Of a stretch of 64,000 bases of DNA, positions 1-18,014 are shown one piece after another. This stretch comes from a bacterium (GTDB lineage: Bacteria > Chlamydiota > Chlamydiia > Chlamydiales > 2-12-FULL-49-11). The DNA is taken from contig JAJZEO010000016.1 in NCBI GenBank assembly GCA_021847505.1, positions 12,177 to 76,176 on the forward strand, in the 5' to 3' direction. Both the position numbers and the translations under genes were made by a program. The notes under the pieces are model-generated. The model did not search any database. It saw only the letters and a list, made by a program, of their open reading frames with translations, and was not told where the DNA came from. The stretch's first letter is position 1; every line of letters begins with the position of its first letter.

Positions 1-60
1 ATCAAAATGAAGATGCACTGACTTACCGATTTACTATTTAGTTTTTACTTAAAATTTATC

Positions 61-822
61 TCAATTTTGATAAGAACTTAGGTAGTTCCTATAAAGAATC
101 AAATAAGCATCCGTTACCACTGTATGGAATTGATGCGATTCAATCACATGACGATTAAAAGTCATGTCCTCACCTAACTTAAAATCAGGCCATTGAAATT
201 GGTCAAATACAGCCCTGGTGATGACAACAACACCATTATGCACCCCATTAGAAATGGAACCATATCTATCAAAAATTGTGGAATAGTCCGACACATAACA
301 ACTATTATGAACTATATCTTGGAGAGAATAATTAGGAAAATTTCCCTCATTCAAAAACAAACGATGGATAAGAAAATCCACCTTATAGTTCTCAAAAAGA
401 TATTTTATGAATTCCATTCTTTGTGGATGAGGAAGATCATCAGCGTCTTGGCAAAGAAGAATATCCCCGGTGCTAGCTCGACATGCAGCATTTCGATTTT
501 CTCCAGGGTATTCATTTTCATCTTCAACGATTTTAACCACAAAGGGGTATTGTTTTGTCAACACGCATTCAATCAAATCAGTAGGAATGTACTTTTTTTG
601 ACTTGTTGTCAGAGAGATAATAAACTCATCAGGTCGAACATGTTGCTGGGCATAGTAATCGATCAGGTCTGGTAATAGATAAAAATGCTTGTAATGACAG
701 GGAACTATTACACTTGTCCTCATGGGTATAGGTATCTCTCGCCGCCCCAATGCAGCAATGAATGGCTGGGTCAGAAATGTAATCACAAAAGCAAGAAAAC
801 TTATTCGAACAAATTTCATCAT
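61..822 (-). CDS. GT-A/GT2-like glycosyltransferase with N-terminal signal peptide or anchor
   Basis: 253-aa ORF. 'SVIVPCH' N-terminal strand and 'QDADDLPHP' DxD motif are typical of GT2-type enzymes. Hydrophobic N-terminus MMKFVRISFLAFVITFL. Confidence 0.6.
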   Translation of the reverse strand: MMKFVRISFLAFVITFLTQPFIAALGRREIPIPMRTSVIVPCHYKHFYLLPDLIDYYAQQHVRPDEFIISLTTSQKKYIPTDLIECVLTKQYPFVVKIVEDENEYPGENRNAACRASTGDILLCQDADDLPHPQRMEFIKYLFENYKVDFLIHRLFLNEGNFPNYSLQDIVHNSCYVSDYSTIFDRYGSISNGVHNGVVVITRAVFDQFQWPDFKLGEDMTFNRHVIESHQFHTVVTDAYLILYRNYLSSYQN

Positions 823-840
823 GGACCTTATGAGTGTTAT

Positions 841-923
841 TCATTTTTCATGCTATCCTATCAGAAAAAGAAAAAATGCGCCCATGTTTTAATTTACAAA
901 GAACGATGCTAGCATGAAAATGA
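841..923. repeat. Imperfect inverted repeat in a divergent promoter region
   Basis: Arm 'tcatttttcatgcta' (841-855) matches the reverse complement of 'tagcatgaaaatga' (910-923) with one extra T. The right arm overlaps the 10-bp palindrome 'atgctagcat'. It lies between divergent GT genes. Confidence 0.3.
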
Positions 924-1030
924 TGTCCCCAAATAAAATCTATTGATTTTTCCCTAAAAACGACTAATATCTTAAACATGCTTATTTGCACAAAACTATT
1001 CTTGATATATGTTAATTTAAGGTAATTTAG

Positions 1031-1924
1031 ATGACTTTAGTGCAGTATCCCTTTAAGGGAATTCTCGTTATTGCTCTTCTCTCAAGAACTCTCTTGCTTT
1101 TCGCGGAAGAACTCTATGATCAACATCAGAAAGTAGGTTGCGTTTATCCCTTTTTAACTCCTATTGCTAACTTTATAGAACCAATAGCAACTCATAGTGA
1201 TTTATCTGGGGTAGACGAAGTAGATTGTATTTATGTAATCAATCTTGATAGACGCACTGATCGATGGCAAAGAATGGAACAAATACTCAATCAAAACTTA
1301 TTACACGCCAATCGCGTCTCAGGTTTTGATGGAAGATACCGACTTACCGAATCTGACATGGATGCAATCGTTGGTCCCTACGGCAGAAGAAATATTAAAA
1401 AGGGGCAAGTAGGTATTGTTATAACCTATTTATCGATTTTAAAACACGCGCTCGATAACAACTTCAATTGCATTTGGGTTATGGAAGATGATGTCGAATT
1501 TCACTGTTCACCCGAATCTATCTCTAAATTTTTAGTCGCTTTATCTAATTTAGACCCAGATTGGGATCTGTTTTATACAAACATAAACCATCGTTATGAA
1601 AATAATTCTCATATTTCTGACTGTCACTGGATACGTCAAGATCAGCGTCCTGATGACCCAACAATTTTGCCAGATCCTGAGTACTTTCCTTCTTTGCAAT
1701 TAGCTAGAACTTGGTTTCATTTAGGTACATCTTCTAGCATTTTCTCCAAAAAAGGAGTTAAAAAAATCTTTGATTTTTTAACACATATATATTTTTGGTC
1801 TGGACTCGATATAGACATCCATCACCTGCCTAATATTCACGAATACATATCCACAATCGATCTTGTTGGCAATTGGCCATTTAGTGATTCCGATACCTGG
1901 CCTAAAGATGATATAGGCAGGTGA
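1031..1924 (+). CDS. GT25-family glycosyltransferase (LgtB/Lic2-like), signal-anchored
   Basis: 297 aa. 'IYVINLDRRTDRWQRM', 'VSGFDG' and 'IWVMEDDVEF' match the GT25 signature. Hydrophobic N-terminal segment GILVIALLSRTLLLF. Confidence 0.75.
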   Translation: MTLVQYPFKGILVIALLSRTLLLFAEELYDQHQKVGCVYPFLTPIANFIEPIATHSDLSGVDEVDCIYVINLDRRTDRWQRMEQILNQNLLHANRVSGFDGRYRLTESDMDAIVGPYGRRNIKKGQVGIVITYLSILKHALDNNFNCIWVMEDDVEFHCSPESISKFLVALSNLDPDWDLFYTNINHRYENNSHISDCHWIRQDQRPDDPTILPDPEYFPSLQLARTWFHLGTSSSIFSKKGVKKIFDFLTHIYFWSGLDIDIHHLPNIHEYISTIDLVGNWPFSDSDTWPKDDIGR

Positions 1925-2133
1925 GAACTTCTTTTTCAAGAAAAATCTTGCAGTTAACTACAAAGCGTGTTGATAACTCTTTCTAGTAATTCAACTCTTC
2001 TTCAGGTAACCAAAATTACTTTAGAGCTTGGACAGAAAAAGATTTCTGTAATTCATAATGATACAAGAAAAGGAGCTCTTTTTAACATCGATCAAACTGT
2101 AGACCTCTTTTATTGATGCACGTGACTTTGTAA

Positions 2134-2835
2134 TTACTTCAAAAGTTCCTTTCTCACAAACACAACATTTCCATGATGTGTATGACATGTTTGTTCCTTA
2201 CAAATCATTGAAAAACCCAATGATTCTAACCAGCTCTTATACTCTTCTAATAAAACAGTCCCTTTGTAAAACTCTAACTCTGAATATTCGGTATAAATGA
2301 CTTTTACAGTGGACAAAATTCGCGGAGAAGCTCTTAACATCTGGCACTCTGCCCCTTGCATGTCAAGATATAAAAAATCCACTTTTTTAACCCCTGTCAT
2401 ATTTGCCCAATCATCCAAAGTAATTATGGGGACCTTCACAACATCACAAAATTCAATTACATCCGACCACACAAATTGATCAGTGGGGGGTAAAAGAGAA
2501 CTTTGTGCATCAAAAGGATTCTCATCTCTAGGATTTTTTTTTGCACTTAAAAAAAAATCTGCAAAACCAGTCATCTCACCTAAAGCTATTTCAAAGGTTT
2601 GAACATTCTGCAAACCAGCGACTCTAGTGCGAAGCTGTTCATACACATCGTGCCTACATTCAAAAGCATAGATTTTACCCTGAGGCCAAAATTTAGCCAT
2701 TTTGTATGTGTCACTACCATCATGCGCACCACAATCAATAATGACAGCATCGGAAGGAACAAATCGACTCGCTACATCAAAAGCATCCCCATAACAACTC
2801 CCCCAGCAAAAAAGAACAAAAATCCAATTTCTCAT
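2134..2835 (-). CDS. FkbM-family SAM-dependent methyltransferase with signal peptide
   Basis: 233 aa. 'VIIDCGAHDGSDTYKMA' and 'DFLYLDMQGAE' match the Methyltransf_21/FkbM pattern. N-terminus MRNWIFVLFCWGSCYG. Confidence 0.7.
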   Translation of the reverse strand: MRNWIFVLFCWGSCYGDAFDVASRFVPSDAVIIDCGAHDGSDTYKMAKFWPQGKIYAFECRHDVYEQLRTRVAGLQNVQTFEIALGEMTGFADFFLSAKKNPRDENPFDAQSSLLPPTDQFVWSDVIEFCDVVKVPIITLDDWANMTGVKKVDFLYLDMQGAECQMLRASPRILSTVKVIYTEYSELEFYKGTVLLEEYKSWLESLGFSMICKEQTCHTHHGNVVFVRKELLK

Positions 2836-2879
2836 GCTAACCTCTTTTTTTAATCTATCCTACTTTAACAGCTATCTCT

Positions 2880-3785
2880 CTATTTTACTACAAAGCCTCT
2901 CTTGTACTTACTAATTTCTTTTTCCCAGTAGTTAATATATAATTTTTCATAATTATATTCCCTATCCTTAAATTCGTCCCATTTTTTTTCTAAATAACTC
3001 TCATCAATGATGTTCCAATCATCGACTATCAAAACAGGTAAGTCTTTAAATAAAGGATCCAGCGAGGAACTCTTTACGACTGGGACAGCCCCCATATACA
3101 ACGCCTCCCAGGTTCTATGAGTATCTATTCCATTTCCTCGTGGTGAAATCACAAACTTTGTTCTTGCCAAGTCGGTTAAATAGGAAAAAAAATCCTTAGA
3201 GCAAGAATAAACACCCCCATTTAACTGTCTGAATAAATTATACACATAAGACCGTTCGTCGGAATAAGTTCCAATGGAGAAATTCATATAAAGCAAATGT
3301 TCTTTGTTGCAATTCTGAAAAAGCGATCTTGCTTCTTTTAGCTTTTGAACATTTCCATGTGGCCAACATCTATTGGCTATTCCAATTGGAATACCTTTAA
3401 GCTTTGGATGGGTAAAGTTTGTTATGTTCTGTGCAAACCAAATTATCACATTGTCATTATCTAAATATCCCTTATATTTATCAGTCACTGGAAGATCTCC
3501 ATTATGTGTGATAAGAATGTAGGGCTGGTTAATTCTTGAATGATAAGAAGCAATAAAATCATCTAAAAGATCTATTTTTACAAAAATGATATCACCAAAT
3601 CTGACTTTAGTTGGCATTAGCGAACGACTTTCTTCATCAAAGACGAAATTTGCAAGCGCACGAAAAGAGTCTCCTGAAATATATGGGGCACTAGAACCTC
3701 TACCGCTCTCAGCATAAATATTTGCCAAAAAACAAACACTTATTATGAAAAAAAATATTTGTTGCTTCGAGCTTACTGATGCCAT
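2880..3785 (-). CDS. Exostosin (GT47)-like glycosyltransferase with signal peptide
   Basis: 301 aa. C-terminal 'KFVISPRGNGIDTHRTWEALYMGAVPVV' matches the exostosin-family motif (pRG..D..R..EAl..G.iPV). N-terminal hydrophobic segment IFFFIISVCFLANIYA. Confidence 0.55.
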   Translation of the reverse strand: MASVSSKQQIFFFIISVCFLANIYAESGRGSSAPYISGDSFRALANFVFDEESRSLMPTKVRFGDIIFVKIDLLDDFIASYHSRINQPYILITHNGDLPVTDKYKGYLDNDNVIIWFAQNITNFTHPKLKGIPIGIANRCWPHGNVQKLKEARSLFQNCNKEHLLYMNFSIGTYSDERSYVYNLFRQLNGGVYSCSKDFFSYLTDLARTKFVISPRGNGIDTHRTWEALYMGAVPVVKSSSLDPLFKDLPVLIVDDWNIIDESYLEKKWDEFKDREYNYEKLYINYWEKEISKYKRGFVVK

Positions 3786-3798
3786 TTATAGTCTCTTT

Positions 3799-4755
3799 TC
3801 ACCTTGCTAGCTTGTAAAAGTGATTCATAGTCTCTACATTCCCTTCTTCTGTGAACACCTCTGAATAGGGCAACTGGGGAAACATTTTTAGTCTATGAGC
3901 GACAATTCCCAATGCTACTTGTTCTGGCCTAGGAGAAAGAAAGCCCTTAAGCTTCCTCATTTTCTCGAAACTATTCTCAAAAAAGAGCCTAGTCCTTTCA
4001 TTTTCCATATTTAATCCAATCAAAGAGGCTTGTATCTGGGGAATTGATGCTCTTTCGTATTCCGTTAAAGAAAATGCCTCAACAACCATGGGGGAGTCAT
4101 GAGCTGCAACTTTTGTTACATGATCAATCAGAAAGTACCCATCTTCCTCCAAATAACGTAGAATCGCATTGAACTTTTCACCAGGAATCACCGCTGAATC
4201 AATCCATATAATATTTTTATATCCCAATCGGTAGGCCTCCCTGATCATACAGAGCTTAAAACTATAGGGAACATGAATAAGAGTTAGAGATCCCCCTTCA
4301 ACGTCAGGCCACCCACCTAGACGATAAAGAAAATGCCCTGTGAAATGGCATTTTTTCAGATATTTTTTAATTCTTGAAATTTTTTCCGTATAGGATGAAT
4401 TCCAACTTCCATAACAAACAACGCAACAATCTCTATAATTTGGATCATCGTTAAACAATATTTTATGCAGTTCAAGATCAATCTCACCGTTATTTCCCAA
4501 CTTTAGATTTCTTGCTCTAAAATCATAACGTAAACCATCAGCTTTAGATGGGATATACCATTCATAGTTAAGCCATTTTAAATAGTCCCTTCTTCCGTTT
4601 AGTAAATAATCTTGAATTAATAAAAAGTCAGCATCTTTAGGAGATTGAATATCAGACACTTTAGCATAGACAACGTCCCAATCATTGATTACGCGTTCAT
4701 TACTATAACAAACATAACTCGACATCAAAATAATTACAACAAAAATGGTTTTCAT
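3799..4755 (-). CDS. Secreted putative nucleotide-diphospho-sugar transferase (GT-A-like), uncharacterised
   Basis: 318 aa with signal peptide MKTIFVVIILMSSYVCYS. 'YSFKLCMIREAYRLGYKNIIWIDSAVIP' resembles the helix plus DxD strand of Nucleotid_trans-type GT-A enzymes. It lies inside the GT cluster. Confidence 0.35.
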   Translation of the reverse strand: MKTIFVVIILMSSYVCYSNERVINDWDVVYAKVSDIQSPKDADFLLIQDYLLNGRRDYLKWLNYEWYIPSKADGLRYDFRARNLKLGNNGEIDLELHKILFNDDPNYRDCCVVCYGSWNSSYTEKISRIKKYLKKCHFTGHFLYRLGGWPDVEGGSLTLIHVPYSFKLCMIREAYRLGYKNIIWIDSAVIPGEKFNAILRYLEEDGYFLIDHVTKVAAHDSPMVVEAFSLTEYERASIPQIQASLIGLNMENERTRLFFENSFEKMRKLKGFLSPRPEQVALGIVAHRLKMFPQLPYSEVFTEEGNVETMNHFYKLAR

Positions 4756-4770
4756 AATAAATCTGCTTCA

Positions 4771-5724
4771 TTAACTACTTGTATCGCTTGTTCGATTAAC
4801 TATTGTATGTGTAATATACGGCTGTGTAAGAACATATTGTCGAATATTGGGAACTAAATGGATGGAAACATCCACATGGGTCCATAGTTCCATTGACTGA
4901 TGAAATTTAATCAGTTTTTCAAGTCCTGATTTTGATATAATCAGTGAATAGGCTCCAATTCTTACATGAATCCTTTCAAAGTCATCTCCAATAAACTCTC
5001 TCTTAAAAAAATAATCCGCGTTAGCTTTTTCCACTTTTGGGTGATGCATTGGCGGTACATGAGTTTGTCTAAGAAATGTTCCATCCCAATTTCTCGTATC
5101 TGGATCTGTATATAAAATATCCCAATCAGGATCTAATTTACTAAGCTTTTCTAATAACTCTGGGATTTTTTCTAGAGGTTGAAAAATCTCAATATCATCT
5201 TCCATTATCCAAATTCTATCGTAACCTTTAAGTATAGCATCTCTCCAAATGGAAAAATGGCTAAGTGCGCAACCAATGGCTCCTAGTGTTAATTCAGTAT
5301 CATATTTTTTTTTCCCTGTTATCTTCCAAAGATCATTTCTTAAGAGCTCCTTACCATTTACAGCTTCTACGCGTGTTGCATTAAAATGATGCTTATGCAT
5401 TAATGCTTCTATTCTCTTCTTTCTCTCGGGCCTGGTAGCAAGATTAATGTAGTAAATTTGGTCAATCCCGCTCACCCCAGAAAATTTTGGCTCATCTTCT
5501 AGAGGAATATCGACAATATGTGCGTCAATCCTAGCATTATAAAACTTAATCTCCCTCTCTTCCGCATATAGAGTTAGACAAATTAAACATGCAGCTAAAG
5601 TTACGGCTCTAGTCATATTAGTTAACATAAAAATTGTCCTCGTAGAGAAAAAAAGTTGTTCCATATTTCCCCCAGGATAGTTAGGAAAATCACTATTAAA
5701 GTCAAATAGATACTCAGAGAACAA
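4771..5724 (-). CDS. GT25-family glycosyltransferase, signal-anchored
   Basis: 317 aa. 'IYYINLATRPERKKRIEALM', 'VEAVNGKEL', 'IWIMEDDIEI' and 'DPDWDILYTD' are GT25 signatures. Hydrophobic segment AVTLAACLICLTLYA. The true start may be an internal Met. Confidence 0.75.
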   Translation of the reverse strand: MFSEYLFDFNSDFPNYPGGNMEQLFFSTRTIFMLTNMTRAVTLAACLICLTLYAEEREIKFYNARIDAHIVDIPLEDEPKFSGVSGIDQIYYINLATRPERKKRIEALMHKHHFNATRVEAVNGKELLRNDLWKITGKKKYDTELTLGAIGCALSHFSIWRDAILKGYDRIWIMEDDIEIFQPLEKIPELLEKLSKLDPDWDILYTDPDTRNWDGTFLRQTHVPPMHHPKVEKANADYFFKREFIGDDFERIHVRIGAYSLIISKSGLEKLIKFHQSMELWTHVDVSIHLVPNIRQYVLTQPYITHTIVNRTSDTSS

Positions 5725-5741
5725 CCTAAATTCTTGTTAAT

Positions 5742-6620
5742 TTAAAATTGCTCATCAATAGGACAAATCGCACTGTAATCAACCTCTTCCCATTGTTGTA
5801 ATATTGAAGGCAAACTAGATTTAAAAGGGAGAGCACGAAAAGCATCTCTCCAAAGGGACATAGCATCATTAGGAGTTTCCTTAAATGCCTCGTGCAAATC
5901 TTTTCGAACTAGAAATAGATTAATAGTAAGACAAACAGGCTCATACCCCATTCTTTTCGCCACCTCTATGTATACTTCTAATGGCTGTTGCCGATTTGCT
6001 AATGCAATTTCTTCACAGACTTCTTGCTTAATTAAAGGGTGCCAAGCTAAATTCGCTTCAATCATTATTACTTTAGGCCTACATTTCAACCCCTTGAGAA
6101 TATAGTAATCAGCCCCATCAACATCAATAGACAAAAAATCGATTTCTCTTTCTGGGAAATACCGTTGATATATTTCATCGAATAGAAGACCATTTTTGTC
6201 ATCCGCCTTATAAGTAACCGCTAACTTCAATGGCATTACCCCAGAATCTCTGGGATAGTTTAAACTAAGTTCATTGTACAAATCTGATGATGGCTCAATC
6301 ATAACTCCTTCCCAGCCACTTTCCCATAAACTTCTGGTATTAGAAATCTCAATCCCATCCATAGCTCCAAATTCTACAAAAAATCCTTTCTCAATTTGAA
6401 GTCTACGAAAAATCTCTTTAATAATTCCTTCTTCGCCATATTGAGAATATTTGCATTCTGCAAATCGATTCAAACTATTAGAAGAAAGTCTCTCAAAATT
6501 TTTTCTTAATTCAGCTTCTGTTGAATCCTTCCATAAATTTACATGTGCAAATACAGGAACACTCAATGGGAGGAAGAGCACTAGTAAATAATTTCTCACA
6601 ACACCATAATATCGATACAA
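5742..6620 (-). CDS. FkbM-like methyltransferase with signal peptide
   Basis: 292 aa. 'YSQYGEEGIIKEIF', 'FFVEFGAMDGIEISNTRSL' and 'DFLSIDVDGADYYIL' fit the family. Paralogue of 13216..14007. Confidence 0.6.
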   Translation of the reverse strand: MYRYYGVVRNYLLVLFLPLSVPVFAHVNLWKDSTEAELRKNFERLSSNSLNRFAECKYSQYGEEGIIKEIFRRLQIEKGFFVEFGAMDGIEISNTRSLWESGWEGVMIEPSSDLYNELSLNYPRDSGVMPLKLAVTYKADDKNGLLFDEIYQRYFPEREIDFLSIDVDGADYYILKGLKCRPKVIMIEANLAWHPLIKQEVCEEIALANRQQPLEVYIEVAKRMGYEPVCLTINLFLVRKDLHEAFKETPNDAMSLWRDAFRALPFKSSLPSILQQWEEVDYSAICPIDEQF

Positions 6621-6650
6621 AACAAACCTCCAATTTATGCAAACAGTTTC

Positions 6651-7517
6651 CTAATTTTCGATTATCCAAGATTTAGGGATCAAATCCTCCGTATTGTGCA
6701 TATCATAGGCTTCCCCAAACCACTTCCTTGGCGCAACTACGAGTTTATTTGGATTGCGATTGAGATAGGCCGCCCACCAGGAATAAGTTGAATTTGCAAT
6801 GATATTACTTTTACAAAGACTCATAAGATACAAATCATGGTAACGATTTTCACCTTCAATAAAAATAATATTTTCTTCTATTCCCGAGAATATGGTTTTG
6901 CACCATTCTATGTTGTTCGAGAAGACAACGAATAAGGACTCTTTAGGAAAATGCTTCATTGCGTTTATATAATATTCTCGTGTGCAATTTGGGTGATAGA
7001 TCTGTTCAGTATCTCGCCTATAGTCACGACAGTGTATGGAAACAGTGTTTGAGTTTTCCAAAATAGGCCCATATTTACTAGTCAGGTAAGAAATAATTTC
7101 CTCTGAAGGGGCAAATATATTTAATACTTTATCCTTGCAATGAATAAAATACTTTTCTGATTGAAAATACCCCCTAAGTAAAACGTTGCGGCTAGGGGGA
7201 ACTTTGCAATAGTGAAAGTATGGTTCATTATATATGCTTCTAATTCTTACGTTGGGGGCATGCCCATTCAGTCTAAAAAAAATTGCTTGAAAATTTTCAG
7301 GAATATTCCATCTTTCATCTGTCAGTAAAGCAGGAAAACAGGGCACTAAACCATTTTCCTCCGAAAACCCAATTGTTGCGGCAATGATGAACATTTGATT
7401 TCCTAGTTCCCCCTGCAACTCGCCAACAACATAATCATCTGCAAATAAAACAAATAGACTAAGTAAGGTTCCTAAAAAAACAAATCCTACTAAACTTTTC
7501 CCTTTTAAAAATTTCAT
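6651..7517 (-). CDS. GT11 alpha-1,2-fucosyltransferase-like, signal-anchored
   Basis: 288 aa. 'GELGNQMFIIAA', 'VSIHCRDYRRD' and 'NSTYSWWAAYLN' correspond to GT11 motifs I-III. Its start overlaps the stop of the downstream GT10 gene by 4 nt (ATGA). Confidence 0.75.
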   Translation of the reverse strand: MKFLKGKSLVGFVFLGTLLSLFVLFADDYVVGELQGELGNQMFIIAATIGFSEENGLVPCFPALLTDERWNIPENFQAIFFRLNGHAPNVRIRSIYNEPYFHYCKVPPSRNVLLRGYFQSEKYFIHCKDKVLNIFAPSEEIISYLTSKYGPILENSNTVSIHCRDYRRDTEQIYHPNCTREYYINAMKHFPKESLFVVFSNNIEWCKTIFSGIEENIIFIEGENRYHDLYLMSLCKSNIIANSTYSWWAAYLNRNPNKLVVAPRKWFGEAYDMHNTEDLIPKSWIIEN

Positions 7518-8524
7518 TCGAAAATTGCCTTTAAGTACGCTTTCACTAATTGTTTCGTTCTAAATCGATCTCCTTGAACGGAATTGACATATTTTTGAAT
7601 GTTATTGAGATAATTTTGCCATACTTTTTCCTCCATTGATTCAATATAGGAATGCAATTTTGAATATGTGTTAAACTCCCTGGCATCGATGAAACACCCA
7701 GCAGGAATATAGTCTGCTATATTTGTGGCTCCAAGGTAAATAGGCACTGAACCCACCATTAACGGATCAAATATTTTTTCAGTGATATAACCATCATTAT
7801 TCAAATAATTTTCGAACGCATAACAAAATCGGTAATTCTTCAACACTGCAAGCTTGTCTTCAGGCGAACAAACATAGCAGGGGTGATCCGATTTTGAAAA
7901 TCCAAATAGATCAAAGCTTAAATGAGAATTTTTTTCATAAAAATTTAGCAGCCTAATTCGCTCTGAATAAAGTTCATTTGGGTGAGAAGATGTTTTATTC
8001 CCAATTATTGTACACACGAGCTTTCGTTCTGAAAAAGAAGGCAAATTCAAAACCATACCATGGTTTACCGGATAGCCATACTTAATATAACGGCTTCCAT
8101 CAACCAAATTATCATTCCAGGTAATGATCCGATCAAATAAAGAATGCACTTTTTTTTGATGAACTTCAGGACAAACTGTAGGGGGCTCCCAAATCGTTAA
8201 AATTTTCTTGCATTTAAGTTTCTTTAATCTTGCTAAATCACTATTATTTGGAACATTGTTAAAAACAACCACATCACCATTTCCAAATTTATCGCTTTCA
8301 ACTGCAATAATATCCCATCCTCGCTCTTTTAAGCGATAACGAAGCTGTGTGTAGGGAGAACTGCTAAATACATCTTGGGGCTCGATTGGATCCTTAAAGA
8401 CCTCATCTGCAATCCCCGAACAATTCATAATAAATTCAACCAAATTGCAATGAGCAGAAATTGAAAGTTGAAAGAAACTCACGATAAGCAGATTCCAAAA
8501 GGAAATAACAAACCAATTTGCCAT
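7514..8524 (-). CDS. GT10 alpha-1,3/4-fucosyltransferase-like, signal-anchored
   Basis: 336 aa. 'YRFCYAFENYLNNDGYITEKIFDPLMVGSVPIYLG' matches the GT10 alpha-1,3-FucT motif (FENS...Y.TEK). N-terminus MANWFVISFWNLLIVSFF. Confidence 0.8.
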   Translation of the reverse strand: MANWFVISFWNLLIVSFFQLSISAHCNLVEFIMNCSGIADEVFKDPIEPQDVFSSSPYTQLRYRLKERGWDIIAVESDKFGNGDVVVFNNVPNNSDLARLKKLKCKKILTIWEPPTVCPEVHQKKVHSLFDRIITWNDNLVDGSRYIKYGYPVNHGMVLNLPSFSERKLVCTIIGNKTSSHPNELYSERIRLLNFYEKNSHLSFDLFGFSKSDHPCYVCSPEDKLAVLKNYRFCYAFENYLNNDGYITEKIFDPLMVGSVPIYLGATNIADYIPAGCFIDAREFNTYSKLHSYIESMEEKVWQNYLNNIQKYVNSVQGDRFRTKQLVKAYLKAIFE

Positions 8525-8641
8525 AAATTTTCACTATATAAACCTTCAATTGAACATTCTTTCATAAAATCAAAAAATAGTCCACTAATGTCTCTTTGTA
8601 GACCAACGTTAGCGATCATGTTGCATTTGGGACAAAGCTAT

Positions 8642-8670
8642 TTGAATATGCCGAAAATACAGATTAAATA
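8642..8670 (+). promoter_or_regulatory. Candidate sigma70-like promoter for the + strand GT operon
   Basis: TTGAAT (8642-8647), a 17-nt spacer, then TAAATA (8665-8670). It lies upstream of the ORF that starts at 8685 (or at the internal Met at 8751). Sequence match only. Confidence 0.25.
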
Positions 8671-8684
8671 TCGTTGAATGTTTA

Positions 8685-9551
8685 ATGAAAAAGTTTTATA
8701 AGCTGAACCGTCTTTGGTTAGAATTTAACACACTAACAACCGGTTACTTTATGAAGTTAGGTTTCTATTTTTGTTTTGCACTACTAGGGCTATTTGGTAA
8801 TGAAGTCTTACTAGAAGAAAAGAGAATCGTAATTGTTGTTCCTTCGTACAAAAATGAAAAATGGGTTAAACAAAACTTATCTTCCATTTTCAACCAAGAT
8901 TATGTTAATTATCGAGTGATTTATATCGATGATTACTCCCCTGATAACACAGTCCCATTAATAAAATCCCTTGTCAATGAATGGAATTTCGCAGTTAATT
9001 TTACTTTAATAGAAAATAAAGAACGAAAGGGTGCCATGAGAAATTTGTATGAGGCGATTCACAGCTGCGATGACGAAGAGATCGTTGTCACTGTTGATGG
9101 GGATGACTGGCTTGCTCATGATCAGGTCCTCAATCATCTCAATAAAGTCTATTCAAACAAAGATCGACCGGTATGGATTACACACGGAAGTTATCGTGAT
9201 TCAAAAGGAAACCCCGGAATGCAAAATCAAATTACAGATTCGATCATTGAACGAAATGCCTTTCGGGGAAAATGCCGCGTTTCTCATCTCAGAACCTTTT
9301 ATGCTTGGCTTTTTAAAAAGATCCTCATTCAAGACTTAATGTATGAAGGTAAGTTTTTTGAAATGGGCTGGGATTTAGCAATGATGTTTCCAATGCTAGA
9401 AATGGCAGGCCACAGGCAACTTTACATTCCAGAGGTACTGTATATTTATAATGTTCAAAATCCAATCAGCGATTTTGTCAAAAATCCAGATTATCAGATG
9501 AAATTGGATCGATATATTCACAAAAAAAGGAAGTATTGTCCCCTACTGTAA
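8685..9551 (+). CDS. GT2-family glycosyltransferase, signal-anchored
   Basis: 288 aa. 'VIVVPSYKNEKWVKQNLSSIFNQDY', 'YIDDYSPDNT' and 'VTVDGDDWL' are the classical GT2 N-terminal and DxD motifs. Hydrophobic segment MKLGFYFCFALLGLFG (possible true start at 8751). Confidence 0.8.
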   Translation: MKKFYKLNRLWLEFNTLTTGYFMKLGFYFCFALLGLFGNEVLLEEKRIVIVVPSYKNEKWVKQNLSSIFNQDYVNYRVIYIDDYSPDNTVPLIKSLVNEWNFAVNFTLIENKERKGAMRNLYEAIHSCDDEEIVVTVDGDDWLAHDQVLNHLNKVYSNKDRPVWITHGSYRDSKGNPGMQNQITDSIIERNAFRGKCRVSHLRTFYAWLFKKILIQDLMYEGKFFEMGWDLAMMFPMLEMAGHRQLYIPEVLYIYNVQNPISDFVKNPDYQMKLDRYIHKKRKYCPLL

Positions 9552-9591
9552 TTTTAAGGAACCCCCTTAAAATATTAGTGTTATTTTTCTT

Positions 9592-10689
9592 ATGAGATCG
9601 TTTGGCTATATTTGCTTTTTTTTGTCAAATTTAGAGAGTTGTTTCTTATTTTTTTGTCCGTTTTTTTTGTTTCATTTTACTCCCCTCCACAGCAAAACCA
9701 TTTACATATTACCCTTTCCCAGTATAAACTTTGAGACACTTTTTTTTGGGGATTACAAATATAATGACCCGAACAGCCAGGCCAGAGATGAAACTAGCAA
9801 GACTTGGATTTATTTACGAAAGGCCCTCGAAAAAAATAATTTTGCAGTCAAAGCCCCTTGTGAGGAAAGTCCAGGAGATGATGTAACCTATCTGATTTCT
9901 CTTTCAAACATTGATCAGGAAAGCTTAAAGAACTTTTCTCACATTCCAAAAAGTCATCGCTTTCTTTTAGTCTTTGAGCCACCCGTAGTCTCCCTTGAAC
10001 TACATAATCCCTCTCTCGCTGAATATTTCGGGAAAATTTTCACTTTGTTCGACGATGTAATTGATAATGAAACATATTTTAAAATGTTCTTCCCGCAACC
10101 AAGACTAAAGATGATCCAACCAATTGTTGATTGGAGTGAAAAGAAGTTTGCAACACTAATTGCAAATGATAATACCTCGGACCATCCTGATGAACTTTAT
10201 ACAGCTCGAAGAAAGACGATAGATTTTTTTGAACGGGGAAAAATCAAGGGTTTTGATTTATACGGAAATTCACCAAGCTGGGTAAGATATAAAAATTGGA
10301 AGGGCGCAATAAAAAACAAGTGGCCAATTCTTAGAAATTACAAATTTTGCTTTAGCTATGAAAATACCAGGGGCAGGTCAGGTTATATCACAGAAAAAAT
10401 ATTCGATTGTTTTGTCTCTGGGTGTGTCCCTGTATACCTTGGAGCGGATAGTGTAACCCAATACATCCCCAAAAATTGTTTTATTTCCGCAAATGATTTT
10501 TCAAATGAAAAGGAATTACACCGATTTTTAAAAACTATGGATAGAAACACTTATGACAATTATATTCGATCAATCGATGATTTTTTAAAATCAGACCAGG
10601 CCAAACTATTCTCAATTCAACACTTTATAGAAATTATCTTACCCCATGTGGGGGGTGGAGAAGTTGAAAGTGTCCCAATAGATTCCTAA
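9592..10689 (+). CDS. GT10 alpha-1,3/4-fucosyltransferase-like, signal-anchored
   Basis: 365 aa. 'YKFCFSYENTRGRSGYITEKIFDCFVSGCVPVYLG' is the GT10 motif. Paralogue of 7514..8524. Confidence 0.8.
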   Translation: MRSFGYICFFLSNLESCFLFFCPFFLFHFTPLHSKTIYILPFPSINFETLFFGDYKYNDPNSQARDETSKTWIYLRKALEKNNFAVKAPCEESPGDDVTYLISLSNIDQESLKNFSHIPKSHRFLLVFEPPVVSLELHNPSLAEYFGKIFTLFDDVIDNETYFKMFFPQPRLKMIQPIVDWSEKKFATLIANDNTSDHPDELYTARRKTIDFFERGKIKGFDLYGNSPSWVRYKNWKGAIKNKWPILRNYKFCFSYENTRGRSGYITEKIFDCFVSGCVPVYLGADSVTQYIPKNCFISANDFSNEKELHRFLKTMDRNTYDNYIRSIDDFLKSDQAKLFSIQHFIEIILPHVGGGEVESVPIDS

Positions 10690-10696
10690 GAGGAGA

Positions 10697-11692
10697 TTGC
10701 TTTCTTTGAGATTAATTCTAGTTTTTCTTTTTTGTGTGCCTCTTTCAAATCTTCAATGTCTTGAGAAAGCGCCCCACTACATTACTTATTCTTTTAGCGG
10801 TGGACGATTCGGAGATCAATTAGTTTCTTATCTACATGCCAAGTGGATTTCATATAAATTTGGCATTCCATTGTTATTAAAAGAGTTTAGCTATTCTAGT
10901 CAATTATCCTTATCCCAACTAGAGCTTCCATTTTCTTCTGATATAGCAGATCTTGAGGTTATTTACTTACCCCGCCTAGACTCTTTTGCAATCGACACTT
11001 ATATTAACGAATTTTCAAAAAGAGGTCCAGCCATTTTAGAAATTCCTTATTTCCCTCTTTCAGAATTTGAACTCACCAGTCCCCAGAACTACCCTTCATT
11101 CGTTGTTGATTGGAATGACCCAAATTTTAAAAAGGAGCTCCAAAAAAATATTTGTCTGAAAGCTGATCTTGATTTAGTGAAAATTCCTAAACAAAAACTC
11201 TCAGTTGCTATTCACGTCCGGCTTGGAAAAGAATTTGATGGGCCAAATATGGAGAAATATTATCCATTGAAGTTTCCCCCTTTAACTTACTACTTTAAAG
11301 CTTTAAACCACCTTTGTAAATTATTAGATCAAAGGGAACTCTATGTACACCTTTTTTCCGATGACTCTACTACTAACGAACTCATGGCTATTTTCAGAGA
11401 AAAATTCCCCAGAGAAAAATTCCCCATAGAATTTGGGACAAGAGTAGAAAACAATAGCCATTCAAAAAATGTACTCGAAGATTTTTTTTCTCTACAAAAA
11501 TTTGACTGTATAATTCACAGTGAATCAAATTTCTCATTTGTGGCTTCCCTTATTGGGGATTATTGCATAAAAATTCGCCCCAAAGAATTTCACTTTCAAC
11601 AAGGCCAATTAATCATTGATGAAATGCAAATTGATATTGACCACATTTTATTGGAAAAGCGACTTAGTGATCTTTGCAAATCATCGGATTAA
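10697..11692 (+). CDS. Divergent GT11-like / fucosyltransferase-superfamily protein with signal peptide
   Basis: 331 aa. 'SGGRFGDQLVSYLHAKW', 'VAIHVRLGKEFD' and 'HSESNFSFVASLIG' loosely parallel GT11 motifs I-III. The start is a TTG (10697, or in-frame 10706) after an AGGAG. Confidence 0.45.
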   Translation: MLSLRLILVFLFCVPLSNLQCLEKAPHYITYSFSGGRFGDQLVSYLHAKWISYKFGIPLLLKEFSYSSQLSLSQLELPFSSDIADLEVIYLPRLDSFAIDTYINEFSKRGPAILEIPYFPLSEFELTSPQNYPSFVVDWNDPNFKKELQKNICLKADLDLVKIPKQKLSVAIHVRLGKEFDGPNMEKYYPLKFPPLTYYFKALNHLCKLLDQRELYVHLFSDDSTTNELMAIFREKFPREKFPIEFGTRVENNSHSKNVLEDFFSLQKFDCIIHSESNFSFVASLIGDYCIKIRPKEFHFQQGQLIIDEMQIDIDHILLEKRLSDLCKSSD

Positions 11693-11818
11693 AAATGCTA
11701 AAAAGTTTTATTCTTTATTTTTTATTGCCTTATATAGCTGAATTCCCTAAGGAACGATAGTTTGTACCCACGCGAAAATTCCCGCGATTAAAATATTTGA
11801 CCCCAATCTCTTTCCTAA

Positions 11819-12100
11819 ACAAACCCATTAGTTTGGTTTGTCGAAGATGATGTTATCTTCATCTCCTCGGCAGACAAGCTCTATGAATTGGTGGAGAATT
11901 TATCTAAAATCGACCTCGATTGGGATATTCTTTATACAGATCCCAGCACAATTGATTGGGATGGCTTCTCTATAGCAAAGAAAATACTCTTCCCACCCCT
12001 CCATTTGTTGATATTATCGGTAATAACTACTTTCATAGAAGAAAAGTCATTGATGGCACCTTTAAGTCACCCTATCTGGACAAGTGTCGATAATTCACTC
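11819..12100 (+). pseudogene. Truncated and frameshifted GT25 glycosyltransferase remnant
   Basis: The in-frame translation 'VWFVEDDVIFI..LVENLSKIDLDWDILYTDPSTIDWDG' aligns with 'IWIMEDDIEIF..LEKLSKLDPDWDILYTDPDTRNWDG' of ORF 4771..5724. The N-terminal ~170 aa are absent (stop at 11816-11818). Similarity continues in another frame ('NNYFHRRKVIDGTF') after about 12010. Confidence 0.7.
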
Positions 12101-12107
12101 CACTATA

Positions 12108-13208
12108 TTACCACTGTCCTAAATAAATAGGCGAAAGGTGCCCCAAAGTATAAGGCCCTGAAATGCGAGAACTAAATGCTGCTAAATTCTTAGAATGTAC
12201 ATGTAGATTATTAATTCGGTATCCTTTTCCATTATAAATTATGTAAGGAATCCTGCGGTTCTGATCATCTAGGCGCCACTCATATTTAAATTTGCTAGCA
12301 TCAAAGATACAAGCTTCATTGATAAAGCCAGCAGGTGGCCCTCTATGCGTCCCAACTATATATTGACCTAATGCTGCAGCATCAAAGACTGATTGAAAAA
12401 GATCAAAATTACGGCAAAAATCGTATTTATCTGCAGCTTTGTGATGGTGATAACTTTCTAATTCATGCTGATTTTCAACATATTCCGATACAAGTATTGG
12501 CAGATGGTCTATAGCTTTTTGACCTTTAGCCCTCTTGAAAAAAGAGGGGAGCTGCATATCACTTCTATCTAAATGAGCGCAAGCCTCCATAAATTGTGCA
12601 TAGCAAGCCATAGCTTTTAAGTTGTGTATATACAAAAAACCGCATACACAACGTTCATCATTATCAAAAGTAGCTCCAATTCCTTTATATAACGAAGTAA
12701 ATAAGGGGAGGAGTTCTTCCAAATTTACATAAAGCAAATTATCATGTTCCATGTGAAATATGTTCTCTCGCGGCTGCCACTCTAAAAAATCATATAAATA
12801 CAAAAAACGCTCACTATAAACATTCCAATCATGAATATATAGGTGTTCTTTCCAGTTTAGGTGGGTAGGTGTCATAGGGATGTGTTCTAAGGCAACAAGA
12901 TTTACATTAATTGAGGTGTCGATAGGTGAAAATTTTTCGATGAGAGCTTGGTTGGTAAGGAGGATAATTTCACAATTTGGATTAAATAACCTAGCTTGCG
13001 ATAAGGCAATTTCAACATGTGGAGGTAAACTTTCCCCAATATGTACAAAAATAATGGAGTAATTGCTTGAAGCATATAATGTATTGAATAGAAAACATAA
13101 TACCCACCCAAGGCGAAAAGTCTTTGATTGTAAATCTAGAATGATTTTTTTCAAGCTAGTTCTAGCCTCCAATTTGATATGTGAATACAACATAGGATCT
13201 TTGCCCAA
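12108..13208 (-). CDS. Putative GT32-like glycosyltransferase, signal-anchored
   Basis: 366 aa. 'IIFVHIGESLPPHVEIALSQARLFNPNCEIILL' and 'SERFLYLYDFLEW..IFHMEHDNLLY' loosely resemble Gly_transf_sug/GT32 motifs. Hydrophobic segment LGWVLCFLFNTLYA. Weak assignment. Confidence 0.35.
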   Translation of the reverse strand: MGKDPMLYSHIKLEARTSLKKIILDLQSKTFRLGWVLCFLFNTLYASSNYSIIFVHIGESLPPHVEIALSQARLFNPNCEIILLTNQALIEKFSPIDTSINVNLVALEHIPMTPTHLNWKEHLYIHDWNVYSERFLYLYDFLEWQPRENIFHMEHDNLLYVNLEELLPLFTSLYKGIGATFDNDERCVCGFLYIHNLKAMACYAQFMEACAHLDRSDMQLPSFFKRAKGQKAIDHLPILVSEYVENQHELESYHHHKAADKYDFCRNFDLFQSVFDAAALGQYIVGTHRGPPAGFINEACIFDASKFKYEWRLDDQNRRIPYIIYNGKGYRINNLHVHSKNLAAFSSRISGPYTLGHLSPIYLGQW

Positions 13209-13215
13209 TTCATTC

Positions 13216-14007
13216 TTACTGATTTAGCAATTTCCCTGCGCTCGTATAAATTCTATCTTTTGTATCTTTATGATGTCCGCCATTTTTTTCAGCCCCATGC
13301 CCACCATAGCGTGGTTTTTTATACAAAGCGTCAACATTTCCCATGTTCTTGAACTTTAAGCCCAGGCTATCAATTAGGTCATTTCTCAAAAAAAACAAAT
13401 TTACACCATTATTTTCCATATACACTAAGGTATAGCCCTTCATTTTTCCTAGTTTGTAAAGCGCTAATACTGATGCTCCATAATAATTTCCTCCATCCCA
13501 ACGACCATTTGGATCATAGAAAACGACAAGATCCTCTTGAGGATAATGTGTTGCATTACATTCAATACAAACTACTTTTGGACGATATTTTTCAGGAAAC
13601 GCTCGCCAAACATAAAAATCATTGAAATCTATATCTATAGATACAAAATCTATATCTTCTGGAACATTATATTTAGCAAGAAGGTCCCCAATGTTTTCTG
13701 CTGTTATAAATTCTTTATACAAACCAATTCCCACATTTTCATGATCTCCATCCCATTGAACACCAGACCATTTTTTATCTCTTAAATTGGCTACGTTACT
13801 AGTAGTTATTCCATCAAAGCCACCAAATTCTAAGTAAAAATGTGAAGTAGGAGGAATAAGGTTGAATAATTCCTCTATTACCCCATCTTCTCCTTGTTGG
13901 CTATAAATTGACCGTTCATAATTGCCTAAATCAATTTCTTCCGCGGAATACACAGCGATGCTGATAAAATTAAAAATTAAGAGACAATATTTCAGTCCTT
14001 TTTCCAT
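13216..14007 (-). CDS. FkbM-like methyltransferase with signal peptide
   Basis: 263 aa. 'YSQQGEDGVIEELF', 'FYLEFGGFDGITTSNVANL' and 'DFVSIDIDFNDFYV' fit the family. Paralogue of 5742..6620. Overlaps the upstream gene by 16 nt. Confidence 0.6.
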   Translation of the reverse strand: MEKGLKYCLLIFNFISIAVYSAEEIDLGNYERSIYSQQGEDGVIEELFNLIPPTSHFYLEFGGFDGITTSNVANLRDKKWSGVQWDGDHENVGIGLYKEFITAENIGDLLAKYNVPEDIDFVSIDIDFNDFYVWRAFPEKYRPKVVCIECNATHYPQEDLVVFYDPNGRWDGGNYYGASVLALYKLGKMKGYTLVYMENNGVNLFFLRNDLIDSLGLKFKNMGNVDALYKKPRYGGHGAEKNGGHHKDTKDRIYTSAGKLLNQ

Positions 14008-15011
14008 GTAATATCCTCCATATGTAGAGACAATGTATTTTTGTTAACTTTAGCAACCCATACTTCATGATTATCTAATCCATATACAATATAGATATCC
14101 TCTCCTCTCATTAGAAGCCCCCCTGGATAAACAACTCTTGATGGCCCCCATCCCCACTTAGCGACATATATAGGCCATCTATAAAAATTGTCTCCTATAA
14201 GAGGAATTTTACTTATTTTTTTTGGCAAAAATGGGTAATGTGCAGAAAATATGAGTGCCCCCATAAAAAATTGTCGAATCTCTCCAAGCCAGGTGTTAGA
14301 ATGGAAAAAGGTTAGATATTCATCATCATTGATTAGTATAGCAGGAGTCCCTCCGCGCAGACCATTAGAGTCCGCCCATTCCCAATCAATTCTTCGGTGA
14401 TCTGTCGACATTGTTACTGTGCTATTTGTTCCTAAAAGAATTTGTAAAACACGGAAGGGCTCTGTATTATAGATACAGCAAAGTTCCCCTAAATGCTGAA
14501 ATGGAGACCAATTTTTTTCTACACGCCCCTCTCCTCGGACGAAATCATATTTGAAAAAGGGTTCTGGTTTAATGTAAAAATGTTCTCCATCAGAAGTAAT
14601 TTCACCCACATGCATTGTTCGTGGTCCACAACCCGATGGCGTTCTATCGTCATTAAAAAAAGCATACAATTTATCTCCAACAACTATCAATCTTGCATCT
14701 TCTGCTCTAGATGGAACCTGGGGATCATTAAATCTTGTTTCTAATAACTGAGGAGTTCCAATTGGATTAAAATTATCATCCAATTTAACCAGACCAATGT
14801 AACTTTCTTCCCCATTATGCTCTCGAAAACTTAATAGTAAATTTCCACTCCAATAGGCAATTGAAGGGTTAAGCGCATTTCGATAATGCGGGATTTTAAT
14901 TCTCTTTTCTTCTGTTACTAGGCGGGGCAATTCATCAATTGGTGTTGCATAACTAACATTCATCCTCAACAACAGCCCAAACAAAAGAATCTGTTTCACC
15001 TTTAATTTCAT
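13992..15011 (-). CDS. Secreted beta-propeller glycosidase/phosphorylase-like protein (DUF377/GH130-like?), uncertain
   Basis: 339 aa with signal peptide MKLKVKQILLFGLLLRMNVSYA. 'NPSIAYWSGNLLLSFRE', 'AEDARLI' and 'EKNWSPF' recur in the way beta-propeller blade motifs do. The family call is tentative. Confidence 0.3.
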   Translation of the reverse strand: MKLKVKQILLFGLLLRMNVSYATPIDELPRLVTEEKRIKIPHYRNALNPSIAYWSGNLLLSFREHNGEESYIGLVKLDDNFNPIGTPQLLETRFNDPQVPSRAEDARLIVVGDKLYAFFNDDRTPSGCGPRTMHVGEITSDGEHFYIKPEPFFKYDFVRGEGRVEKNWSPFQHLGELCCIYNTEPFRVLQILLGTNSTVTMSTDHRRIDWEWADSNGLRGGTPAILINDDEYLTFFHSNTWLGEIRQFFMGALIFSAHYPFLPKKISKIPLIGDNFYRWPIYVAKWGWGPSRVVYPGGLLMRGEDIYIVYGLDNHEVWVAKVNKNTLSLHMEDITWKKD

Positions 15012-15060
15012 TTTGTCCCACTTTTTTCTTTCTACAATCAGAACGGTTGAATTTTCTAAA

Positions 15061-15879
15061 TTACAGGGCTTTTTCTAAATAAAAGACAGGTTGAATACAA
15101 TAACCAAGAGGTGCATCGAAAAGACTTTCTGAAAAACCATAAGATTTTCCTACCTTCCAACCCTCAAATAACATCGGAAGTCTAATAGGTCCATAAATTC
15201 GATGAGCATTCCAGGCTACCGCATCTTTACCAACTGGAAAAGCAATTAACATAAATCCCTCGTCCTTTAAGAAAGATTTTTTAGCTAACTTCATAAAATC
15301 AAAGTCCCCATTGGGATTTAAGGGGTCACCATATCTGCCCAAACCATCGTGTTCAATACTAGAGATAGATAAAATGACGTCAAATTGTATGGGCTGTTTT
15401 ACATATTCCCCGAAAGTCAAAATCTCTAACCTTGGATCATCGGAGACAATTCTATTGTATTCTATAGTAAAGGGGATACCACCGAATGCAAGCACAATAG
15501 CCTCGTACCAAGGTGTGGTAGAACCTATTATCCCAACAGTTTTACCTTCGATAGAGTGTTCTCTAATTGCCGCATAAAGCCAGCTGTCTGTTTCACCATA
15601 ATAGTTTTGTTGGCCTTGTAAAACCTTGATAATATAACTATCTATAAGTTCCCTAGAGTACATTAAGGGTTCAGTAGACGAATAGGTTCCATCCATGTAA
15701 TAATCAATAACTGGGATTGCACAATTTAAAGTGTATTCATTAAAGAGGTCACTCGGGATCTCCCTTGGGGGGGCAGAATATAAATTACAGAAAAAGCAGC
15801 CTTGAAAAATGAAAAATGAACTAACCAACTTCAAAACTATTTGGGTCATAAAATATTCCTTAATAGAAATGCTTAACAC
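15061..15879 (-). CDS. DUF268-type SAM-dependent methyltransferase-like protein, signal-anchored
   Basis: 272 aa. 'GKTVGIIGSTTPWYEAIVLAFGG', 'TIEYNRI' and 'SSIEHDGLGRYGDPLNPNGDFDFM' match my recollection of the DUF268 family (nematodes plus scattered bacteria). Hydrophobic segment LVSSFFIFQGCFFCNLYSA. Confidence 0.55.
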   Translation of the reverse strand: MLSISIKEYFMTQIVLKLVSSFFIFQGCFFCNLYSAPPREIPSDLFNEYTLNCAIPVIDYYMDGTYSSTEPLMYSRELIDSYIIKVLQGQQNYYGETDSWLYAAIREHSIEGKTVGIIGSTTPWYEAIVLAFGGIPFTIEYNRIVSDDPRLEILTFGEYVKQPIQFDVILSISSIEHDGLGRYGDPLNPNGDFDFMKLAKKSFLKDEGFMLIAFPVGKDAVAWNAHRIYGPIRLPMLFEGWKVGKSYGFSESLFDAPLGYCIQPVFYLEKAL

Positions 15880-15934
15880 TATTGGATCTAGTGTATTTTC
15901 GTCTATAAATTTATTTGTTTTTCAAACCTCAACC

Positions 15935-17935: not shown

Positions 17936-18014
17936 GGTTGTGTCGCAGTTTACACAAATTGGGGCAAAGTTGCATAATGTTTTCTCTTTCGCTGTTTATA
18001 GGAGGCCTAAGCGT

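Follow-up and report, generated by a model that had tools for sequence, protein, structure and literature searches.

A glycosylation island with predicted exported fucosyltransferases and a candidate blood-group-H/Lewis-like cap in an uncultured environmental chlamydia

Background

The set behind the Lewis O-chain of Helicobacter pylori comprises the glycosyltransferase (GT) family 10 enzymes FutA and FutB, the GT11 enzyme FutC, a GT25 beta-1,4-galactosyltransferase and gmd/fcl; the H. pylori Lewis enzymes are leaderless and cytoplasmic, and their product is ligated by WaaL. Bacterial ABH cassettes, such as those of Escherichia coli O86 and Bacteroides ovatus (BoGT6a), join a GT11 to a GT6 enzyme, and characterised GT6 enzymes of the BoGT6a/ABO group usually need a Fuc-alpha1,2-Gal acceptor. 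Chlamydial surface glycans are, to our knowledge, regarded as minimal (Kdo-lipid A lipooligosaccharide, LOS), and our literature search found nothing on chlamydial fucosyltransferases or fucosylation. Here we describe positions 4771-11692 of a 64,000-nucleotide stretch (the window; positions 12177-76176 of contig C28) from the metagenome-assembled genome (MAG; 1.67 Mb, 140 contigs, 89.9% complete) of an uncultured chlamydia-like environmental bacterium. This region forms the central part of an accessory glycosylation island and holds four candidate fucosyltransferase genes, namely two GT10, one GT11 and one GT11-like gene.

The capacity of this organism for fucosylation is well supported, and there is an even chance, in our judgement, that the enzymes of the island, which are predicted to be exported, build a blood-group-H/Lewis-like cap outside the cytoplasm. 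A sequence-only reading of the window had taken the GT10, GT11 and GT25 combination as a sign of fucosylated glycans of the Lewis/H type. The families, their motifs and the presence of gmd-fcl genes agree with fucosylated glycans, but a Lewis acceptor based on N-acetyllactosamine (LacNAc) is not implied by them.

Fucosyltransferases of the island

Both GT10 proteins exceeded the PF00852 cut-off of 23.9 bits (Table 1) and carried the FxxxFENxxxxxY(I/V)TEK donor-binding motif, as 'AFENYLNNDGYITEK' and 'SYENTRGRSGYITEK', plus the upstream Glu and Arg. In an alignment of 31 sequences that included both paralogues, the invariant columns were E113 (WEPP), R189, E238-N239 ((F/Y)EN) and E249-K250 (ITEK), so the two paralogous GT10 open reading frames (ORFs) and the motifs first noticed from the letters of the sequence were borne out. 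The Glu at E113, which in GT10-1 aligned to the 'ESP' segment of FUT9, would be the catalytic base. Identity between the two proteins was only 29%, and GT10-2 is an old paralogue of GT10-1. Among sequences in the PDB, GT10-1 matched human FUT9 (2e-12) and HpFucT of H. pylori (2e-6), and GT10-2 matched the same two about equally (5e-12 and 2e-11, respectively). The AlphaFold2 (AF2) model of GT10-1 (pLDDT 91.8) showed a GT-B fold like that of the solved GT10 structures; in Foldseek its best match was HpFucT 2NZW (1.2e-12, TM 0.59), with FUT9 (6.9e-12), mango FUT13 and Arabidopsis FUT11 following. As the last of these, AtFUT11, is a core-alpha1,3 enzyme, and the GT10 family holds core-alpha1,3 and protein-O-fucosyltransferases as well, membership does not imply a LacNAc/Lewis acceptor.

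The GT11 protein showed the N-terminal GNQMF, the FSNN...W.K and the NSTYSWWAAYL motifs. Its motif I is the clade variant 'SIHCRDY', versus the canonical HxRRGDY; the GT11 motifs that the sequence-only reading saw in this ORF are present, motif I in this variant form. Invariant in the clade alignment were GNQMF, H162-x-R164, FSN and S243..S246-W-W. Homologues with 45-56% identity, annotated as alpha-1,2-fucosyltransferases, were found in Chlamydiota MAGs.

The fourth ORF (GT11-like) had no Pfam, NCBIfam or PDB sequence match, and Pfam also gave no match in 55 homologues (56 members sampled). A sequence-profile search of the family against PDB and Pfam returned nothing, and matches came only from profile-profile and fold comparison. 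At 50% clustering the family numbers 1,196 representatives (E<=1e-3), 433 of which are at E<1e-30. R37 (GGRFGD), H173-x-R175 and D222 (FTDD) are invariant and S277 (SNFS) nearly so, resembling the motifs common to alpha-2/alpha-6/O-fucosyltransferases. In hhalign, the alignment with a GT11 profile spanned 251 columns (94.6% probability, E 6.6e-8) and brought the motifs of the two into register. The best 46 Foldseek matches of its AF2 model (pLDDT 93.1, pTM 0.89) in PDB were all GDP-fucose fucosyltransferases (FUT8, AtFUT1, POFUT1, NodZ and POFUT2), although at a moderate TM of ~0.45-0.49. Profile and model together place the ORF in the GDP-fucose fucosyltransferase superfamily (GT11/23/37/65/68), and its earlier description as a divergent GT11 relative is thus true at the superfamily level, while no Pfam model makes it a GT11 member. 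Hidden Markov models support the membership assumed for both GT10s and the GT11, all above cut-off, and leave the GT11-like ORF below any Pfam model; no NCBIfam model matched any of the 4771-11692 proteins. The GT11-like family, for which Pfam has no model, is a large candidate fucosyltransferase family that might be useful in glycan synthesis.

Export leaders of the island proteins

All of the island proteins (17/17) had one N-terminal hydrophobic segment and none elsewhere. The Kyte-Doolittle threshold was passed by 14 of the 17, compared with 35% of the long ORFs of the genome (binomial P = 9e-5). In most leaders Lys/Arg preceded the hydrophobic stretch, which ended in a small residue and was followed by acidic ones, as in the GT11 leader MKFLKGKSLVGFVFLGTLLSLFVLFA|DD; this appears to match the Sec signal peptide pattern. 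Since every enzyme has a Sec-type leader whose -1 residue is small, its catalytic domain is predicted to lie outside the cytoplasm. For GT25b, the start is probably M21 or M33, which gives the leader 'MTRAVTLAACLICLTLYA|EE'; gene callers give 285-297 aa.

The leader recurred in the relatives of these enzymes. Among GT10 relatives it was present in 36/42 chlamydial, 5/6 Dependentiae, 4/4 'Verrucomicrobia'-labelled and 0/2 archaeal sequences, and among the listed homologues in 76% of GT11 and 80% of GT11-like proteins (range 50-80% over GT10, GT11 and GT11-like). It is thus a clade-wide trait.

Operon layout and the sister genome

The minus-strand operon runs from GT10-1 through GT11 and the FkbM-type methyltransferase to GT25b and three more genes, with spacings of 13-44 bp after GT11. 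The stop codon of GT10-1 overlaps the start of GT11 as ATGA, which points to translational coupling of the two. On the plus strand, GT2b is followed by GT10-2 and GT11-like, at spacings of 40 and 7 bp. Each operon hence holds one GT10 and one GT11-type enzyme, the set that a difucosylated determinant would require. Promoter and terminator scans gave nothing above the chance or shuffle level.

A genome of the same genus (G130), with a UvrB 81% identical, helps to read this arrangement. Its uvrB, too, adjoins a low-GC island (31-33%), whose GT25, GT2 and GT11 genes show 45-55% identity to those of the window. However, the slot overlapping the GT11 start (again ATGA), which GT10-1 takes in the window, is filled by an ABO-type GT6 enzyme (PF03414, 171.6 bits) that bears a leader and resembles BoGT6a (2e-55) as well as the human ABO transferases (1e-37); no GT6 was found in the window's genome. 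The GT6-GT11 pair lies at L105 (G130:C6) 281-1869. That a GT6 replaces the GT10 beside a conserved GT11 gives indirect support to the GT11 making an H-type epitope. We give about even odds to the conserved GT11 making an H-type (Fuc-alpha1,2-Gal) product. On such a core the cap could be exchanged and would be set by the coupled gene, Lewis-type fucose here and A/B-type Gal/GalNAc in G130. Island content varies between the sister genomes, and the GT11-like gene was missing from the six further genomes that belong to this family or genus, which suggests its acquisition from elsewhere in the order.

Over the order, GT10 was found in 37/150 genomes, GT11 in 41/151, GT11-like in 29/151, GT6 in 16/150 and gmd in 61/150. 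Each of the four transferase families thus occurs in 11-27% of the order's genomes and is not rare there. Co-occurrence of GT10 and GT11 was modest (odds ratio 2.7, p = 0.019). Clusters as tight as this one are uncommon: among the loci of 80 GT10 relatives, a GT11 lay within 10 kb in 3/80 and a GT25 in 1/80. We also asked whether the fucosyltransferases track gmd over the order, and they did not (odds ratio for GT10 or GT11 vs gmd 1.2, p = 0.61).

Proposed cap and its acceptor

In the scheme that we propose, GT2 and GT25 enzymes would make a hexosamine/hexose acceptor ending in beta-linked galactose or glucose. The GT11-type enzymes would add a Fuc-alpha1,2 cap, an H-like epitope, and the GT10 enzymes would place a second fucose on the subterminal sugar. 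The result would be a difucosylated, Lewis-b/y-like cap, which FkbM-type methyltransferases may O-methylate; from the co-located methyltransferases, non-mammalian-like methylated sugars are predicted. This could take place in the periplasm, in the inclusion lumen or at the cell surface, and the acceptor would be a secreted or surface molecule and not an undecaprenyl-linked O-chain.

By its sequence GT25b appears closer to collagen galactosyltransferase than to bacterial GT25. Its best PDB match was human COLGALT1 (2e-12, vs 1e-5 for a bacterial GT25), and it shares with GT10-1 this higher match to a human lumenal enzyme (FUT9, also 2e-12) than to a bacterial structure (2e-6 for GT10-1). The sequence-only reading had GT25 enzymes lying alongside the fucosyltransferases; one of them, GT25b, is in 4771-11692, while the others, GT25a and a GT2-GT25 fusion, lie outside it. 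An FkbM methyltransferase and a GT2, which had not been mentioned, are in 4771-11692 as well.

Supply of GDP-fucose

The genome encodes two gmd-fcl pairs, on contigs C102 (L001, 806-2861) and C126 (L004, 218-9998), and can thus make GDP-fucose. Both contigs are small, and between the two pairs identity is 76% for gmd and 62% for fcl. The gmd scores of 594.7 and 590.8 bits are over the cut-off, and the fcl scores are 457 and 469 bits against a strict cut-off of 500. The sole candidate GDP-mannose pyrophosphorylase found was a divergent ManC-like nucleotidyltransferase (C63:16916-17851, minus strand; 98.8 bits, below cut-off). No ATG, GTG or TTG precedes its GxGxRLxPL motif; the gene is either decaying or read from a rare start codon. 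Near the C126 pair are a leaderless Glyco_trans_1_2 GT (73 bits), a DltB-like MBOAT and a PgaB-like deacetylase, and this region is possibly a separate cytoplasmic fucose-using polysaccharide pathway.

Alternative explanations

Several observations weigh against assembly of the cap outside the cytoplasm. All four gmd/fcl genes are leaderless, beginning directly at the Rossmann fold, which indicates that GDP-fucose is made in the cytoplasm, and for the eukaryote-type nucleotide-sugar transporter (PF03151) we found only sub-threshold DMT matches. With a cytoplasmic donor and no transporter found, exported enzymes would face a problem of donor supply. Moreover, the leaderless GT beside the C126 gmd-fcl pair could be the true client of that pair, and gmd is missing in 35/62 fucosyltransferase-positive genomes of the order. 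No GalE was found over the cut-off, so that either host UDP-Gal would be required for a galactose acceptor or GT25 might work with UDP-Glc instead. The acceptor specificities of GT10 and GT25 are not readable from sequence, the assignment of leaders relied on hydropathy, charge and inspection rather than on a trained predictor or experiment, and the MAG, to which these genome-wide negatives apply, is only ~90% complete.

The leaderless gmd and fcl, the lack of a detected nucleotide-sugar exporter and the normally cytoplasmic action of bacterial Leloir transferases would all fit a classical cytoplasmic assembly. In it, the hydrophobic segments would stay uncleaved and anchor the enzymes to the inner membrane on its cytoplasmic side, where they would use the GDP-fucose made by the cell itself; the fucosylated LOS or polysaccharide would be flipped and exported afterwards. 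We regard this as unlikely, because Lys/Arg before and acidic residues after the segment predict an N-in/C-out orientation, the h-regions of ~12-18 residues end in A/S/G like signal peptidase I sites, and archaeal and several other aligned relatives have no such segment, indicating that it is not needed for catalysis. In addition, the ~90%-complete genome gave no match to WaaL/Wzy (Wzy_C, PF04932) or to Wzx (PF01943); an ABC-type flippase was not searched for. Enzymes that pass the inner membrane could also be secreted further (e.g. by type II secretion) as effectors which fucosylate, galactosylate or methylate host-derived glycoconjugates in the inclusion lumen with host nucleotide sugars. 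Leaders on all island enzymes and the missing GalE are compatible with this, a precedent is offered by Chlamydia trachomatis, whose glycogen enzymes are secreted into the inclusion and which takes up UDP-glucose of the host, and the 35/62 genomes with fucosyltransferases and no gmd suggest an external donor in many lineages. These genomes also hint at an external GDP-fucose source or a salvage route. Nevertheless, we find such effectors improbable, as GDP-fucose synthesis is encoded in this very genome, nothing shows GDP-fucose to be available in the inclusion, and the leaders speak only for reaching the periplasm.

The sequence-only reading went further and suggested possibly host-mimicking glycans by analogy with H. 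pylori. A LacNAc-based Lewis antigen is unlikely and host mimicry as such very unlikely, since nothing but the family names speaks for them. In its full form, authentic Lewis x/y/b or H on LacNAc would copy host glycans and dampen recognition. GT10, GT11 and GT25 (with GT2) are indeed the H. pylori/Neisseria toolkit, the pair of GT10 and GT11-type enzymes in each operon is what difucosyl Lewis b/y requires, and the sister genome has its ABO-type GT6. Yet the relatives were recovered from metagenomes of groundwater, soil, lakes and the like, where the hosts are likely protists, and Lewis/LacNAc glycans are not known to be typical of protists. With no GalE found, a GT25b nearer to collagen galactosyltransferase than to bacterial GT25, and adjoining methyltransferases that predict non-mammalian-like sugars, we find this form decidedly unlikely. 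An H/Lewis-like cap built outside the cytoplasm is the reading that we prefer.

Island borders and gene content

The island is 17.5 kb long at 35% GC and is flanked by topA and uvrB; its nearest named homologues are in Chlamydiota MAGs. TopA has a C-terminal SWIB domain, a fusion typical of Chlamydiae. The G+C content of window 1-16000 is 35%, versus a genome mean of 43%. The low-GC block begins ~1.6 kb upstream of the window, at the GT2-GT25 fusion gene adjoining topA, and stops at 15879, abutting uvrB (15935-17935). On the uvrB side of the border (window 16001-18000), 52.7% GC with strong positive GC skew stands directly against the 35%-GC island.

A chimeric MAG assembly was considered and ruled out, since independent ENA and Logan contigs hold the island with the same flanks at 99.95-100% identity and without indels. 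On a 44-kb ENA contig the gene order GreA-UvrB-island-TopA is unchanged, with uvrB on one side and topA-SWIB on the other. Parts of the island recur on a 16-kb ENA contig, on a Logan contig and on shorter ENA contigs of other samples.

Table 1. Genes and intervals of the glycosylation island. Positions are those of the window unless a contig is given; bit scores are to the Pfam model named; SAM, S-adenosylmethionine.
Feature	Position	Strand	Pfam match	Remarks
GT2-GT25 fusion	C28:10545-12164			just upstream of window; next to topA
GT2a	61-822			island
GT25a	1031-1924	+	PF01755, 40.7 bits	outside 4771-11692
FkbM-a	2134-2835			island
GT47/RXYLT1-like	2880-3785			island
GT25b	4771-5724	-	PF01755, 87.3 bits	candidate beta-Gal/Glc transferase
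FkbM-type SAM methyltransferase	5742-6620	-	PF05050, 37.8 bits	N-terminal leader
GT11 (alpha-1,2-fucosyltransferase family)	6651-7517	-	PF01531, 97.9 bits	Sec-type leader
GT10-1 (alpha-1,3/4-fucosyltransferase family)	7514-8524	-	PF00852, 63.5 bits	leader; first gene of minus-strand operon
Divergent intergenic region	8525-8684			160 bp, 29% GC; separates the two operons
GT2b	8685-9551	+	PF00535, 73.1 bits	GT2 matches in PDB; leader; first gene of plus-strand operon
GT10-2	9592-10689	+	PF00852, 62.6 bits	leader
GT11-like, 331 aa	10697-11692	+	none	leader; GDP-fucose fucosyltransferase superfamily by profile and fold
DUF268	15061-15879			island end next to uvrB
Four ORFs without family assignment	rest of island (1-15879)

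Elsewhere on the contig, four or five paralogous genes of ~330 aa (C28 (L003) 831-6043) share the C-terminal '...WSIQGLTLSLGYTF' typical of beta-barrel outer-membrane proteins. A transposase-like ORF (1969-2601) is inserted in this run, and some of its members are fragmentary copies. Across topA and outside the low-GC block, a 570-aa leader-bearing protein (C28 (L003) 6065-7777, minus strand) has an N-terminal GT2 domain similar to those of GT2b and the GT2-GT25 fusion.

Comparison with known systems

Taken with the occurrence of GT10, GT11, GT11-like and GT6 over the order, the locus suggests that many environmental chlamydiae bear fucose-rich, blood-group-like caps. If the exported topology is true, Leloir glycosyltransferases would act outside the bacterial cytoplasm, which raises the question of how nucleotide sugars are delivered there. 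A tentative and rather improbable extension is a chlamydial counterpart of the ABO/Lewis system, with an exported GT2-GT25-GT11 core, a GT11-coupled gene that is GT10 or GT6 by species, and periplasmic or lumenal nucleotide sugars.

The locus shares with the Lewis O-chain system of H. pylori the same combination of CAZy families, and GDP-fucose synthesis genes are present in this genome too. The GT10-1 model superposes best on the H. pylori enzyme, yet identity is only ~18-19%. Here, however, Sec-type leaders are found throughout, and no WaaL, Wzy, Wzx or GalE was found; with leaders on every enzyme, the analogy fails mechanistically, and the H. pylori-like assembly that had been suggested does not fit. 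Nor did we see a counterpart to the phase variation of the H. pylori fut genes: the only homopolymers in the fut genes here are A/T runs of 8-9 nt, with no difference in tract length between six assemblies (consensus sequences, in which minor variants are missed).

In architecture, the island enzymes agree with enzymes of the endoplasmic reticulum and Golgi, in which an N-terminal signal or anchor is followed by the catalytic domain. The lumenal enzymes FUT9 (GT10) and COLGALT1 (GT25) are the best PDB sequence matches of GT10-1/GT10-2 and GT25b, respectively, and FUT8, AtFUT1 and POFUT1 (GT23/37/65) are fold matches of the GT11-like model. In contrast to the eukaryotic enzymes, the island genes are bacterial, intron-less and arranged in operons, identities are only ~15-20%, and the closest homologues are chlamydial, Verrucomicrobia-labelled and from Dependentiae.

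Bacterial ABH cassettes are matched most directly in the sister genome, which pairs a BoGT6a-like GT6 with an orthologous GT11, whereas the window's genome has no GT6 and carries a GT10 in that slot. Residue 3 of BoGT6a aligns to residue 28 of the G130 enzyme; the chlamydial GT6 thus differs from its Bacteroides relative by the leader.

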